Positions 12,409 through 30,323 of a stretch of 64,000 bases of DNA are shown here, piece by piece. Both the position numbers and the translations under genes were made by a program. The DNA is taken from the NCBI GenBank assembly GCA_016934295.1, contig JAFGTD010000082.1, positions 72 through 64,071 on the forward strand, read 5' to 3'. This DNA is from Acidobacteriota bacterium. Its GTDB lineage: Bacteria; Acidobacteriota; UBA6911. Under the pieces are notes generated by a model. That model saw only the letters and a program-made list of their open reading frames with translations. It was not told the origin of the DNA and made no database searches. How positions within the stretch are numbered: position 1 is the stretch's first letter; the number at the start of each line of letters is the position of its first letter.

Positions 12409-13377
12409 CTAAGCGGCGGTTTGTGCTTCTCGGGCTTTGATGCTGTCCAGTTCGAGAGCCTCTTTCAACGAATAGATGGCAATTTCGAGCTGGTCGTCCG
12501 AAGGTTCTTTGGTGGTGATACGCTGCAGTCCCAAACCGGGCAGGACAATCATCCTGAAAAAGCCCTTCCGGCAGCGCGGCGCCGACAACCGGATCAATTC
12601 ATAGGACAATCCGGAGACTATAGGCACCAATATCAGTCGCGACAGGAAAATCGCCCAAAATCCTTTAAATTCGACGATTGAAAACACGATTACGCTGACA
12701 ACCATCACAAACATCAGGAAACTGGTCCCGCAACGGGGGTGCAGAGTTGATTTCTTACGCGCGTTTTCCACCGTAAGTTCTTCCCCGGCCTCCCAGGTAT
12801 ATACCACTTTGTGCTCCGCCCCGTGATACTGAAACACCCTGCGGATATCCTTCAGCATACTGACCAGGATTATATAACTCAGGAAAAATACAACGCGGAT
12901 GATCCCGTCGACCAGATTGAAGACAAACCAGTTATGAACTGCGGATATGTAATCTTTCAGCAGGGTGGTAATCCAAAGCGGCATCAGGATAAATAAAAAA
13001 ACGGCTACAGCAATTGCGGCAATCATCGAAAAGGCGATCGGATACACCTTTCCTTCTTTCTTAACCTTGCCCGGACTTTTCTTTGCCTGCAACTCAGCTT
13101 CATCCTTCATTGCGACATTGATGGAAAAATTCAATGCGCGCATTCCAAGAATCAGGGATTGAAGCAGAACGGCAAAACCGCGAACGACATACCACGAAAG
13201 CGGCTTCCAATAATCGGACAGTCGCTTAACCGGCTTTTTCGTTACCTCCACGGAACCATCCATACGCCGCACGGCAACGGCAGTTGCATACGGCGTCCGC
13301 ATCATGACCCCCTCGATAACGGCCTGGCCGCCGACGAGAATATCTTCAGGCGATGCTTTGGATTTCGAATCCGTCAT
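12409..13377 (-). CDS. DUF1385 domain membrane protein
   Basis: [35 protein letters not shown]-like motif. Confidence 0.92.
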
Positions 13378-13384
13378 GGACAGC

Positions 13385-13609
13385 TCAGTTTTTGGACGAA
13401 TCTTCGGTCTTATTCAAACCGTATCGTCGCTGGAAGCGCTCAATGCGTCCTGCAGTATCCACCAGCTTCTGCTTCCCGGTAAAGAAAGGATGACAGGCGG
13501 AGCAGAGTTCCAGGCGAATATCCGGTTTCGTCGAGCGGGTTTCAAACTTATTGCCACAGGCGCAGGTAACCACCACTTTATGGTATTTGGGGTGAATTCC
13601 TTCTTTCAT
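13385..13609 (-). CDS. rpmE: 50S ribosomal protein L31 (Zn-binding type)
   Basis: [13 protein letters not shown]...[13 protein letters not shown]. Confidence 0.98.
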
Positions 13610-13864
13610 TTCAGCCTCTTTATTCCAGTACACTCCGTCAGGAGCCAATAAAGTTAATCGGTTAGTATACCATCAGAGATAAGCTCTTTACCATTAATTT
13701 CTTAGAGTTCCTATTAAAATGAAGCCCATTTTGAATCCCGGGCACTACGAACGGGGATAGTTTGAATTAATGCAAACAATATGATAGTGTGTTCCGTTCT
13801 TTCGGCTCCCCGGTATGGGTATAAACTTCCTCATTGAGGAAAAACACGGCAATCCTGACATTCT

Positions 13865-25503: not shown

Positions 25504-26000
25504 TTAATTCCCCGACAACAGCTTTGTATCAATCCGGACCTGTGCTGATTCAGAACCATCTGCGTTGGCAGTGACGTTCACAGCTCCTGATTTTACTTCG
25601 ATCGATCTGATAATCAGCATAGCCTTGCCGTGAAACAGGCTGTGACTGGACGACCGGAACGGTTCCATGGACAGGGGGTTGCCGTTGCCGATACCCGCGA
25701 TCTCGGCGGGACCGTCCACGCTGAAAGTCCCCTTGTCATCCGATAACGGGCAGGGATTGCCTTCACCGTCCACCACTTCGAAATCGCGCATAAAGGCCAC
25801 CCGCTCAGCGGTCTTTCCCCAGCCTTTTTCTCCTGTTCCTATTTCATTTCCGATCGACCACAGGACCACGCTCGGATGGTTGCGGTCGCGCATAACAAGA
25901 TTTTTTATCTGCCTTTCGCCGAATATCTCCAGAGGCTCGTCGGTCCCATGATCCGCGGTCCCTTCCCATTCTGTAAGCGACAGGGTTTTCGGATATTCGG
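25504..26000 (-). pseudogene. Internally deleted GH2 (beta-galactosidase-like) remnant
   Basis: RDRNHPSVVLWSIGNEI catalytic motif joined directly to the C-terminal Ig domain (VVDGEGN...FSVDGPAEIAGIGNGNP...LFHGKAMLIIRS). Confidence 0.8.
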
Positions 26001-27308: not shown

Positions 27309-27345
27309 TTGACAAAATATTATCTAGTACTATCATATAGTACTA
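27309..27345 (+). promoter_or_regulatory. Sigma70 promoter with a putative BlaI operator; likely leaderless transcript
   Basis: TTGACA 27309-27314, TATCAT 27331-27336; TAGTACTA-N5-TAGTACTA at 27325-27345 overlaps the -10 box and ATG 27345. Confidence 0.7.
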
Positions 27346-27725
27346 TGAGACCTAAAAATAATACCCTCAGCGGGCCACAACTCGACATTATGAAAGTAGT
27401 CTGGCGGCTGGGCGAAGCAACCGTGCGAGACGTTTACGAGGATCTGCGCAGCCGGCGCTCCATCGCCTACACAACCGTCATGACCACAATGAAAACCATG
27501 GCAATCCGGGGACACCTGAAAAAGAGGACCGAAGGCCGGGCTTTCGTCTATGCAGCCACCACACCCGAAACCAGAATGCTCAAAGGGATTGTGGGCGATT
27601 TTATCAACCGGGTCTTCAACGGGTCTACCGAGCCTCTACTGGCGCATTTGGTAAAGGAACGGCGTCTTTCCGAAAAGGACCTGGAAAAAATCCGCAAGAT
27701 GATCCGGGAGGAAGAAAAGCAGTAA
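27345..27725 (+). CDS. BlaI/MecI/CopY family transcriptional repressor
   Basis: QLDIMKVVW...TVRDVYE...IAYTTVMTTM...GRAFVY...FINRVFNGS. Confidence 0.93.
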   Translation: MRPKNNTLSGPQLDIMKVVWRLGEATVRDVYEDLRSRRSIAYTTVMTTMKTMAIRGHLKKRTEGRAFVYAATTPETRMLKGIVGDFINRVFNGSTEPLLAHLVKERRLSEKDLEKIRKMIREEEKQ

Positions 27726-27746: not shown

Positions 27747-30011
27747 ATGGCACTCCCCGTCTGGATGGACAACCTCCTCGCCTATTGTCTGCAGATGGCG
27801 ATTCTGGCTGCCGCGGGCACACTGTTGGCGTATATCTTCCGTCTGCGCATTCCGCGGATATCGCTCATCTACTGGCAGGTTCTTCTGATCGCCTGCCTGG
27901 CACTTCCCCTTATGCAGAAGTGGGAAAAACCGGCCGCCGTTTCCACGGATGTCACCATTCAGATGACGGAAATGACAATCCCGAATACGGGTACGGGAGT
28001 GGTTTCATCCCCGCCATCGAGTCCGAAGATATCGGCAACCGATGCCGTTGTGCTGATATTTGCGGCGGGGGCATTGCTGCGGCTGTTTTGGCTGGCCCTC
28101 GGTTTTTACAGGCTGCGCCTGTTATTGCGCCGATCGGAACCGATCGACCGGATGCCGCCTGTCGCCGAAAGAATTTCTTCACTTATCGGTGTTCGGGCGC
28201 GCTTCTATCTGTCCGATGAAACGGACAGTCCCGCTACATTTGGAATCTTCAATCCGACGGTCATCCTGCCCCGGACATTTCCTGAAATGCGCGAGGCCTG
28301 CAGGGAAGCCATCCTTTGCCACGAACTCCTGCACGTACGGCGGCGCGACTGGGCGCTGATATTTATTGAAGAGATGATACGCACCCTTTTCTGGTTTCAT
28401 CCCGCCGTCTGGTGGCTGCTCTCAAGAATCCATCTTACCCGGGAACAGTCCGTGGACCATGAAGTCGTCAGACTGACGGGAAACCGGCAGCCTTACCTGG
28501 ATTCATTGCTGGAAATCGCCCGGAAGCTCGGGCGTCCCAGGGCGGTTCCGGCACCGCTTTTCCTGAGAGAGCGCCACCTGGTCGAGCGGGTCGCTCTGTT
28601 GATAAAGGAGGTTTCCATGAATCGATTGCGATTGGTGCTCAGTTTATCCGGAATAGCCGTGATCCTGGCGGGAACGGTAAGTCTTGCCGCCGGGTGGTTT
28701 CCTCTAACAGGTCCGGCTTTAATTGTCCAGGAAGAGATCTCTGCTGAGAAAATCGATTCTCAACAGGTTCATCTCCCCGACGCTCAGTCAGATCCAACTC
28801 CGGCACCAACACCCCAGACGCAAACCGTTTCCCAACCGATCAGGCTGAAGCAACCGACAGGCAGCGAATCAAACGGTAAGTTCGAGCTGCATTATTCGGA
28901 TGCGGATCTGAGGTCTTTTATTCAGCAGATCTCCGAACTTCTCGGTCTGACGCCGCTGATAATCGATCCGGAGGTACAGGGAACCGCTACCGTTCATAGC
29001 TCGGAGCCGATATCGAAAAGGGAAGTCCTTGACCTGTTTAACCTTACCCTCAAAAACAATAATGTATCTTTGATCAAGCAGAACGGTATTTATCTGGTTG
29101 TACCATTATCCGCCGACCTGAAAACGGATGTCGACAATATCAAACATCAGGCAGCGTACATCACATATGAAACCACGCCGAAGAATTCAGCGATACCTCG
29201 TCAGGAAGAAGGCGGCATAGTGGGGAAAATACCTGGTGGCGTTGTCGGTAGTTTTGTCGGTGTATCAGACGATCCGGGATCGGGAGGAGGGACCGATACC
29301 AGCGAGGGTGCGTTTGTAGGTCCTGGAGAGGGCGGTGGCATGGGGAGTTATTCTTCCCGGCAAACCACGACAAGAATCGGCAGCAATGTTCTCCAATCCA
29401 AACTCATTCACCGGGTCGCACCTGTTTATCCTGAGGAGGCCAAAGCCGGACAAGTCATATTAAATATAACCGTGAATGAAAAGGGCGAAGTCTCGAACGT
29501 TGAAGTGCTTGACGGCGATCCGCTTTACATTGACGCCGTTGTGGCGGCGGTGAAGCAGTGGAAGTACGAACCGACCCTTCTGAACGGCACACCCATTCCG
29601 GTTATCTCCACCATTACTGTAAAACGTAATGTTGTTTCACCCACGCAGTTTGTTTCGCCCACGGAAATACCGATAAATCCGAACCCCGAAAATGCCGAAT
29701 GGATTGACGGCAATGTTCTTCAATCCAAACTCATTCACAAGGTTGATCCCGAGTATCCTGAACTGGCCAGGCGAGCGCGCGTTAAGGGGAAAGTCAATTT
29801 AGCCGTAACTGTAACCGAAGAAGGCTATGTCTCCAACGTTGAAGTGATTGGCGGCCATCCCATGCTCCGGGACGCTGCTGAAAAAGCAGTAAAGCAATGG
29901 AAGTATGAACCGACTGTACTGAATGGCAAAGCGATTCCTGTCATCGCAACGGTTACAGTTGATTTTGTTTTGCCGGAAGATACGGAAACCGACGAGTCCC
30001 CGCCAATGTAA
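27747..30011 (+). CDS. BlaR1-like M56 peptidase fused to a secretin N0-like domain and two TonB C-terminal domains
   Basis: SPATFG...HELLHVRRRD...WFHPAVW...REQSVD (M56); DADLRSFIQQISELLGLT-LIIDPEVQGTATV (GspD N0-like); two YP...VKQWKYEPT.LNG TonB_C repeats. Confidence 0.85.
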   Translation: MALPVWMDNLLAYCLQMAILAAAGTLLAYIFRLRIPRISLIYWQVLLIACLALPLMQKWEKPAAVSTDVTIQMTEMTIPNTGTGVVSSPPSSPKISATDAVVLIFAAGALLRLFWLALGFYRLRLLLRRSEPIDRMPPVAERISSLIGVRARFYLSDETDSPATFGIFNPTVILPRTFPEMREACREAILCHELLHVRRRDWALIFIEEMIRTLFWFHPAVWWLLSRIHLTREQSVDHEVVRLTGNRQPYLDSLLEIARKLGRPRAVPAPLFLRERHLVERVALLIKEVSMNRLRLVLSLSGIAVILAGTVSLAAGWFPLTGPALIVQEEISAEKIDSQQVHLPDAQSDPTPAPTPQTQTVSQPIRLKQPTGSESNGKFELHYSDADLRSFIQQISELLGLTPLIIDPEVQGTATVHSSEPISKREVLDLFNLTLKNNNVSLIKQNGIYLVVPLSADLKTDVDNIKHQAAYITYETTPKNSAIPRQEEGGIVGKIPGGVVGSFVGVSDDPGSGGGTDTSEGAFVGPGEGGGMGSYSSRQTTTRIGSNVLQSKLIHRVAPVYPEEAKAGQVILNITVNEKGEVSNVEVLDGDPLYIDAVVAAVKQWKYEPTLLNGTPIPVISTITVKRNVVSPTQFVSPTEIPINPNPENAEWIDGNVLQSKLIHKVDPEYPELARRARVKGKVNLAVTVTEEGYVSNVEVIGGHPMLRDAAEKAVKQWKYEPTVLNGKAIPVIATVTVDFVLPEDTETDESPPM

Positions 30012-30323
30012 ATTTCAGCGATGTGAAAAAAATAGTCGATATAGCCAGGGGGGCGGGTAAGGATGAAATCGGGTTGGTTACAGCAAAAATCCGTTAGAAC
30101 ATCTATCAGAATTCGATAGAAAGGGGAGGCCTGAACGGTCCGCCCCTTTTTGCATTCCTCCTCTTAAATAGGCCGGTATTACGCTTTGGCTCTCTTGTGT
30201 GAGGTAAATAATGAAACAATCACCCACATAATAAATCCGCGCGGGACAGAGATAATGCCCGGATTCTTCAGGGGAATGAGTGCATCCGCCCGCGGTTATG
30301 TCAGGCATTCCTACGCTTACCGC

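Follow-up and report, generated by a model that had tools for sequence, protein, structure and literature searches.

A BlaR-like sensor protease carrying a secretin-type N0 module and two TonB_C domains in an uncultured acidobacterium

The blaI-blaR locus and the anatomy of its sensor

We analysed a stretch of 64,000 nt (termed the window; positions 72 to 64,071 of contig JAFGTD010000082.1) from an uncultured soil-type bacterium (Acidobacteriota, UBA6911 group), the 5.45-Mb genome of which is a metagenome-assembled genome (MAG) in 343 contigs. The subject of this work is a blaR-like sensor-protease gene at 27747-30011, which starts 21 nt after the end of a blaI-type repressor gene and whose product joins an M56 zinc protease to an N0 module of the kind found in type II secretion system (T2SS) secretins and to two TonB C-terminal (TonB_C) domains. 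Throughout, G000 denotes the genome under study and P0001 its sensor protein, whilst other G, P and L labels stand for other genomes, proteins and loci, respectively. The features of the locus, all on the + strand, are as follows (aa, amino acids; TM, transmembrane):

27309..27347, +, blaI promoter and putative operator (sequence reading)
27345..27725, +, blaI-type winged-helix repressor, 126 aa (Pfam Penicillinase_R, E 1e-30)
27747..30011, +, blaR-like sensor-protease gene (P0001), open frame of 754 aa
27789..28601, +, M56 zinc-protease and membrane domain, aa 15-285 (Pfam PF05569, E 1.9e-27)
28320-28334, +, HELLH motif, aa 192-196 (translation)
28623-28694, +, last TM helix, about aa 293-316 (translation; helix positions from a low-confidence full-length model)
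28695..28868, +, Pro/Thr/Gln-rich periplasmic linker, aa 317-374 (translation)
28869..29147, +, N0 module, aa 375-467, the block homologous to the resident secretin (PF21305, BLASTP)
29148..29378, +, Gly-rich linker, aa 468-544 (translation; resembles the Gly-rich linker of the resident TonB)
29379..29630, +, TonB_C domain 1, aa 545-628 (Pfam TonB_C)
29703..29972, +, TonB_C domain 2, aa 653-742 (Pfam TonB_C, best stretch 668-742)
29993..30097, +, out-of-frame ExbD-like remnant, last 34 codons and ancestral stop (frame translation)

An earlier reading of the sequence alone (hereafter the sequence-only reading) had listed an M56 domain with HELLH, a TM helix, a Pro/Thr linker, an N0 domain, a Gly-rich linker and two TonB_C domains, and every one of these elements was recovered by Pfam or translation. 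Peptidase_M56 (PF05569) scored 96.7 bits in P0001 against a cut-off of 31, TonB_C was found twice (E 6.1e-32, 110 bits in total) and type_II_gspD_N0 (PF21305) matched at aa 383-449 (28893-29093) with 52.8 bits against a cut-off of 27 (E 3.6e-14); this last match lies inside the span of 28878-29110 that had been proposed for the middle domain. NCBIfam concurred, with a type_II_gspD match at positions 1-87 and two tonB_Cterm matches, and its blaR1_generic model reached 53 bits against a cut-off of 400, over the protease part of P0001 only. As each domain passes its curated threshold, the domains of P0001 and the BlaI assignment are not chance matches. The remaining parts of a secretin (Secretin_N and Secretin, i.e. 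the N1-N3 rings and the pore domain) were sought in P0001 by Pfam and gave no match.

Within the protease domain, H192, E193, H196 and E233 were invariant in an alignment of eight N0-bearing homologs. A full-length AlphaFold2 (AF2) model built from eight sequences (mean predicted local distance difference test score, pLDDT, 44; predicted template modelling score, pTM, 0.21) served for helix positions only. The N0 module lies ~58 residues past the last TM helix. The intervening Pro/Thr/Gln linker is poorly conserved (60 % aa identity to the G022 sensor, with a ratio of non-synonymous to synonymous substitution, dN/dS, of 0.72). The repressor encoded upstream aligns over residues 4-121 with the structures of MecI (1SD6, 1OKR) and BlaI (1SD4), and a blaI gene also adjoins the sensor gene in G022, G029, G012, P0006 and P0014. 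A second M56 paralog is encoded elsewhere in the genome (G000:C152:24291-26912) as an 873-aa frame with an unrelated periplasmic region, in which neither TonB_C nor N0 was seen by eye.

Class, origin and occurrence of the N0 module

The middle domain had been described by the sequence-only reading as GspD-N0/STN-like, a description of which the N0 half stood and the STN half fell. Modelled separately with AF2 (aa 365-470), the module reached a core pLDDT of 90-93 with the order β-α-β-β-α-β-β, and does fold as an N0 domain: the best 17 Foldseek matches in the PDB were all T2SS secretin N0 domains, from LspD, XcpQ, GspD of enterotoxigenic Escherichia coli (including its GspC complex, 3OSS) and PulD, with root-mean-square deviations of 1.2-3 Å over about 76-88 columns. 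PilQ N0 came next, a FecR-like anti-sigma factor (4M0H) was matched at E 1.5e-3 and the signalling domain (STN) of FpvA at E 0.017 only. A sequence search of the PDB with the module returned GspD N0 domains and phage pIV only, and PF07660 (STN), searched in P0001, gave no match. The identity of the middle domain as an STN of a TonB-dependent transducer was therefore rejected, as the sequence matches and the top fold matches are all T2SS secretin N0; it is a true GspD-type N0, and its partner is thereby suggested to be the secretion system rather than a TonB-dependent transducer.

The genome encodes two secretins, a GspD on contig C294 and a PilQ-like protein on C252. The T2SS operon on C294 is complete, comprising GspE, F, G, minor pseudopilins, K, L/M-like and GspC-like genes with gspD last, and the gene directly upstream of gspD, at G000:C294:2838-3719, carries the T2SSC/GspC-HR domain (PF11356, 28.3 bits against a cut-off of 27), with HR at aa 61-166 of its product. 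Aligned without gaps over 93 aa, sensor residues 375-467 and residues 92-184 of this GspD are 67 % identical and 82 % similar (BLASTP 3e-39), and the likeness includes a 14-residue stretch of trailing linker beyond the N0 fold. The PilQ-like secretin was also considered as a source and discarded, since tblastn at 1e-3 matched C294 only.

We then placed the module in a tree of 56 N0 sequences, nine sensor-borne and 47 secretin-borne (47 of the 51 genomes of the order have one). The sensor N0s occupy three positions, each beside secretins of their own host lineage. Group A (G000, G022, P0004, P0003 and P0006) is sister to the secretins of G022, G000, G027 and G046 with support of 100/99; group B (G029, P0017 and P0014) is sister to the G029 secretin (97/80); and the N0 of the G012 sensor falls, on a long branch, within the secretins of its own genus (90/91). 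None of the bootstrap trees united the sensor N0s, and an approximately unbiased (AU) test rejected a single sensor-N0 clade (p=0.00225, and p=0.0055 without the long-branched G012 module). Sensor N0 and the N0 of the same genome's secretin are 67-70 % identical in G000, G022 and G029, compared with only 50-55 % between groups A and B. In a tree of the M56 domain (121 family members) the N0-bearers are polyphyletic, with at least four changes forced by well-supported branches, and loss of N0 is seen in P0005, the M56 domain of which is 89 % identical to that of P0001, yet which has no N0.

Between the paralogous N0 modules of sensor and resident secretin we obtained a dN of 0.23 and a saturated dS of 1.64, and between G000 and G022 dN/dS is <1 in each domain of the sensor. 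Judged from the paralog rates, the N0 copy is old and constrained, under long-term purifying selection. The three-place N0 tree, the AU test, the identities, the M56 tree and this constraint therefore point to repeated entry or to gene conversion: the N0 module has entered the sensor family at least twice, and probably three times, in each case from the host lineage's own secretin, or else it was re-matched repeatedly to the resident secretin gene by gene conversion. Within the literature search made, such host-matched, repeated capture of a secretin N0 is new. Between G000 and G022 (locus L001, 963-3869) dS is uneven along the sensor gene, at 0.55 in the M56 part and 0.12-0.21 from N0 to TonB_C2, and the G022 sensor has an additional TonB_C in front of its N0; the two together suggest recombination or module exchange inside the sensor gene.

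Fusions of M56 with TonB_C are abundant in Acidobacteriota metagenomes, with 279 significant matches, most of them named 'TonB family protein' or 'M56 family metallopeptidase', among 8000 candidates scored. Such fusions, which are functionally uncharacterised, have been recorded in bioinformatic surveys, with TonB1/BT0813 and TonB10/BT3898 of Bacteroides thetaiotaomicron as examples, and make up 9 of 263 TonB sequences in a survey as quoted in the same paper (PMC10350073). Their presence in Acidobacteriota and Bacteroidota, which the sequence-only reading had stated, is thus borne out both by this source and by our homolog search. The periplasmic tail is highly modular across the family, with one to four TonB_C domains, an optional N0, ExbD-like or CarboxypepD_reg domains and unknown C-terminal domains. 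The N0 is rare: we found it in eight of the 120 homologs listed, in sensors of four of the 51 genomes of the order (four of 104 M56 matches there) and in two of the 80 closest genome loci across the phylum. When 1.84 billion representatives were searched exhaustively with the N0 module alone, 820 matches were returned; the best 150 include ~64 ordinary secretins and many fragments, and the only M56 fusions among them are P0006, P0018, P0178, P0142 and P0192. P0178, from another lineage, has the same architecture as P0001, and P0142 has the order M56...N0. In the metagenomic protein P0192 (1228 aa), the M56 part precedes PATR repeats, two STN domains and, at the C-terminus, a GspD-type N0.

The sequence-only reading had called the combination unfamiliar. 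It is indeed rare and we found no paper in a search of the literature on M56 joined to a secretin domain, but it is not unique to this genome, as the above counts and P0178 demonstrate. As such, M56-TonB fusions are known, and M56 with N0 and TonB_C is a rare variant of them that is present in public data and undescribed as far as the literature was searched. Additionally, we observed small proteins in which two N0 domains stand in tandem, and others in which N0 is joined to TonB_C in the absence of M56 (P0151, P0122, P0164, P0177, P0205, P0129, G013:C79:4110-4664 and G018:C24:313275-313817); N0 modules therefore circulate outside secretins beyond the sensor family.

TonB_C and ExbD modules, operator and neighbouring genes

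The other periplasmic modules also have close relatives in the genome. Over 90 aa, TonB_C2 matches the resident TonB (C325:8024-8293) at 71 % identity, and TonB_C1 is 55 % identical to the C-terminal domain of that protein, whose Gly-rich linker (TonB, C325:7526-8302) is similar to that of the sensor. The TonB_C tree is star-like, with two of 18 branches supported, so that for these domains we claim no host tracking and go no further than the 71 % identity. The TonB in question belongs to a housekeeping cluster (G000:C325:4487-10955) of the order SecD-SecF-TonB-ExbB-ExbD-ExbD, after which comes a TPR protein; the closest resident relatives of the periplasmic modules of the sensor family are its TonB and its second ExbD (ExbD2). 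Besides the sensor, the genome encodes eight more TonB_C proteins and ~14 TonB-dependent receptors.

The closest relatives of P0001 (P0002, P0003, P0005 and P0009-11) terminate in an ExbD-like domain that shares with the periplasmic domain of the resident ExbD2 56 % identity and the C-terminus GEIGLIT-E/D-EIR. P0001 does not reach this domain in frame, a truncation that the sequence-only reading had not noted. Directly past its stop codon, another frame encodes RVPANVNFSDVKKIVDIARGAGKDEIGLVTAKIR followed by a stop, which is the end of the ExbD-like domain and is 88 % identical to the tail of P0003 (tblastn). A DNA alignment with G022 gave a clean gap of 157 bp, a length not divisible by three, between flanks that are ~90 % identical as far as the ancestral stop, with the deletion junction between 29993 and 29994; the deletion was seen in one MAG assembly compared with one relative (G022). 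The comparison points to M56-N0-TonB_C-TonB_C-ExbD_C as the ancestral architecture. The new stop lies 12 codons past the end of TonB_C2, and all four recognised domains are still in frame.

Upstream of blaI a promoter is apparent, with TTGACA at 27309-27314, a spacer of 16 nt and TATCAT at 27331-27336. The palindrome TAGTACTA is present at 27325-27332 and again at 27338-27345, where it ends on the A of the blaI ATG (27345-27347), and for this reason the blaI mRNA is probably leaderless. This layout of promoter and palindromes is common to all four fusion-bearing genomes (G000, G022, G029 and G012). In the 5.45-Mb genome TAGTACTA occurs three times, compared with ~71 times expected from base composition, and two of the three copies are those in the blaI promoter. 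We infer that the double palindrome is the BlaI operator. A genome-wide search for a second double site (an exact or degenerate palindrome pair) returned the blaI promoter only. The remaining copy (G000:C97:13413), probably a chance occurrence, falls at the 3′ end of a histidine-kinase gene, shortly ahead of a response-regulator gene.

The genes flanking blaI-blaR lie on the opposite strand and are unrelated, so that blaI and blaR form a two-gene operon. Upstream are genes for an rdhA-like 4Fe-4S protein, an alcohol dehydrogenase, a remnant of a glycoside hydrolase family 2 (GH2) enzyme and an acyl-AMP ligase/acyltransferase, and downstream are those for a U32-like peptidase, a YtxH protein and endonuclease III; no beta-lactamase or penicillin-binding protein gene is found among these neighbours. 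The divergent rdhA-like gene was considered as a conserved target and discarded, as it is shared by the closest relative alone and the neighbours in G029, P0006 and P0014 differ. The GH2 glycosidase remnant (25504-25893, - strand) encodes 128 aa with the C-terminal domains only, and in the syntenic metagenomic locus L130 an intact GH2 gene of 848 aa lies directly upstream of blaI. The presence of the alcohol dehydrogenase and rdhA-like genes in the corresponding space of the window indicates local rearrangement. At L130, which is the P0006 locus, a Porin_O_P gene (12520-13614) that has no counterpart in the window follows blaR on the same strand after a gap of 153 nt.

What the sensor may monitor

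Our favoured reading, held tentatively and with slightly less than even confidence, is that the locus encodes a BlaI/BlaR1-type proteolysis switch in which the penicillin sensor has been replaced by docking modules copied from the cell's own envelope machines. The sequences themselves show the domain anatomy, the paired repressor, the conserved promoter palindromes and the derivation of N0, TonB_C and the ExbD-like tail from resident genes. This derivation suggests that the switch may monitor the T2SS and Ton machines. The sequence-only reading had likewise proposed a sensor that reads an outer-membrane machine and cleaves BlaI, to which the repeated, lineage-matched capture of the secretin N0 lends indirect support. 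BlaR1-type proteases cleave BlaI upon sensor activation, and TonB_C domains bind TonB boxes by strand addition. In the proposed scheme the sensor N0 would dock on the partner of the secretin N0, for which the canonical candidate is the HR domain of GspC, encoded beside gspD, or alternatively on the secretin's own N0 ring; placed as it is relative to the membrane, the module could reach either of them. The TonB_C modules would bind the TonB boxes of the resident TonB-dependent receptors. Whether these contacts are occupied or lost would be relayed via the last TM helix to the M56 protease, which would cut BlaI and so lift repression of the operon, at the double palindrome in its promoter, and of further targets. 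The secretin N0 binds the GspC HR domain via its strand β1 and helix α1, and because this interface is species-specific (PMC3169554), a lineage-matched N0 would be functionally meaningful.

In several respects the locus resembles BlaR1/BlaI and MecR1/MecI of Staphylococcus aureus and Bacillus licheniformis, with which P0001 shares an M56 domain with HExxH and a downstream Glu, a co-oriented adjacent repressor of the BlaI family and a palindromic operator (here putative) over its own promoter. Unlike BlaR1 and MecR1, P0001 has no match to Transpeptidase, the penicillin-binding sensor, and its outer part consists of the N0 and two TonB_C domains. Classical BlaI/MecI operators are built on a TACA/TGTA dyad, whereas the operator core here would be TAGTACTA; the blaI mRNA here is probably leaderless. 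With the M56-TonB_C fusions BT0813 and BT3898 the protein has in common the M56 N-terminus, a linker and one or two TonB_C domains, and it differs from other such fusions by the secretin-type N0 between the membrane and TonB_C. Like TonB transducers it carries C-terminal TonB_C behind a Gly- or Pro-rich periplasmic linker, but its N-terminus is a multi-helix M56 domain rather than a single TM anchor and it has no exbBD neighbours. The fold of its N0 is that of GspD N0 in complex with GspC-HR (3OSS, 6HCG), yet the sensor N0 is tethered to the inner membrane and does not sit at the tip of an outer-membrane pore.

The scheme would follow the logic of FecR/PupR cell-surface signalling, rebuilt from BlaR/BlaI parts and aimed at the T2SS. 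As in P0001, an inner-membrane regulator there exposes a periplasmic domain of the N0/STN fold, which is also the fold of the signalling domain of the outer-membrane partner (FecA or PupB), and the output is proteolytic, as is predicted for P0001. The STN subdomain of PupR binds the STN-fold domain of PupB (PMC7186176), and regulated proteolysis in such systems frees a transcription factor (PMC7186176; PMC7593790). Unlike FecR/PupR, neither P0001 nor its operon has an anti-sigma domain or an extracytoplasmic function (ECF) sigma factor (no Pfam or NCBIfam match), the protease is built in (M56) rather than being RseP or Prc, the regulator is a BlaI repressor, and the N0 derives from a T2SS secretin rather than from a TonB-dependent transducer. 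By analogy, P0001 may thus work like a FecR/PupR system but is not a member of that group.

A number of observations weigh against a switch that monitors the T2SS. No T2SS gene is linked to the sensor in any locus examined, blaI being the sole conserved neighbour, and no operator-like site was found upstream of the T2SS operon, nor any second operator genome-wide. Opposite the Asn-Phe pair of MecI (LVLN-FVEKE), which we take to be the scissile site of BlaI/MecI, this BlaI has His-Leu (LLAH-LVKER), a replacement that leaves room for cleavage elsewhere. Divergence between sensor and secretin N0 is greatest in strand β1, the main hydrogen-bonding element of the GspC interface, where two to three of six residues are identical compared with nine of 12 in helix α1, and the partner of the sensor N0 may therefore have changed. 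Conservation of the interface is thus mixed, with α1 kept and β1 diverged, and does not discriminate between the hypotheses. Furthermore, the orthologous N0 modules of G000 and G022 give a dN/dS of 0.60 over ~14 changes, a number too small to decide the matter, the gene copy studied here has lost most of its ExbD-like tail through a frame-shifting 3′ deletion, and a module copied from the host's own genome would match its lineage whether or not matching was selected for.

Of the alternatives, a generic envelope sensor that responds to a different signal (for example damage to the envelope, misfolded proteins or a small molecule) is the one to be taken most seriously, although we consider it unlikely. 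The N0 and TonB_C domains would then be mere spacers or anchors, and their resident origin would reflect available raw material rather than matching to a partner. Such a sensor would be in line with the high modularity of the tail, with the dispensability of N0 in near-identical relatives such as P0005, and with the lack of T2SS linkage and the diverged β1 strand, but it accounts less well for repeated capture of the same small domain at the same membrane-proximal position in one sensor family, or for the long-term purifying selection on the copy. Moreover, the order of the modules appears to fit the periplasmic depth of their presumed partners, with N0 near the inner membrane and TonB_C distal. 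It is very improbable that the middle domain instead acts as a transducer STN that reads a TonB-dependent receptor in place of the secretion system. N0 and STN do share a fold, as the weak FpvA match reflects, and the receptors are at hand; nevertheless, all sequence matches and top fold matches are T2SS N0, PF07660 is not matched and the module is most closely related to the genome's own GspD.

The protein might also be an effector or decoy, with N0 competing for GspC and TonB_C for TonB boxes so as to throttle secretion or uptake, whilst BlaI and M56 merely set its own level. A decoy would be in keeping with the detection of an operator at the protein's own promoter and nowhere else, so that the operon may be its own sole target, and with the close mimicry of resident parts by the modules (67 and 71 % identity). 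An intact, conserved M56 site paired with a repressor of the cleavable type is, on the other hand, a hallmark of signal transduction, and, given the stoichiometry of the T2SS, one copy tethered to the membrane would be a poor competitor against a 15-mer secretin ring; as such, we regard this explanation as improbable. Quite improbable, in our view, is that we are dealing with a decaying gene or a mis-assembly of the MAG, in which case the architecture seen here would not be a functional design. The clean 157-bp gap, an out-of-frame ExbD remnant still ~90 % identical at the DNA level, a neighbouring GH2 gene that is also a remnant, and an assembly of so many contigs could all be read in this way. 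Set against them, the stop falls 12 codons after TonB_C2 with four domains kept in frame, many family members naturally have no ExbD tail (including the syntenic P0006), and dN/dS is <1 in each domain.

Beyond the single locus, M56 proteases of the BlaR type that carry N0, STN or secretin domains, in Acidobacteriota and in other phyla, might represent unrecognised trans-envelope checkpoints that sense engagement of the T2SS inner-membrane platform (GspC) and of the clients of the Ton system, and cut BlaI. Lineage-matched mimics of the secretin N0 and of the periplasmic domains of TonB and ExbD would report whether these are engaged or vacant, and such sensors, which would amount to a cell-surface-signalling pathway for secretion machines, would have evolved repeatedly by copying a docking domain. 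We put this wider claim forward as a doubtful but genuine possibility.

Soil phyla abound in BlaI/BlaR pairs that are not tied to beta-lactams, and on the question of what such pairs sense the present locus offers a concrete lead, as its borrowed docking domains name candidate ligands, i.e. GspC-HR, the secretin ring and TonB boxes. If the switch proposed here is real, it would show how bacteria keep watch over the assembly or use of a secretion machine, and would provide a clear case of a sensor that evolved by copying the partner-binding domain of its target. It would also carry the principle behind FecR/PupR cell-surface signalling over to a different protease, a different regulator and a different machine.

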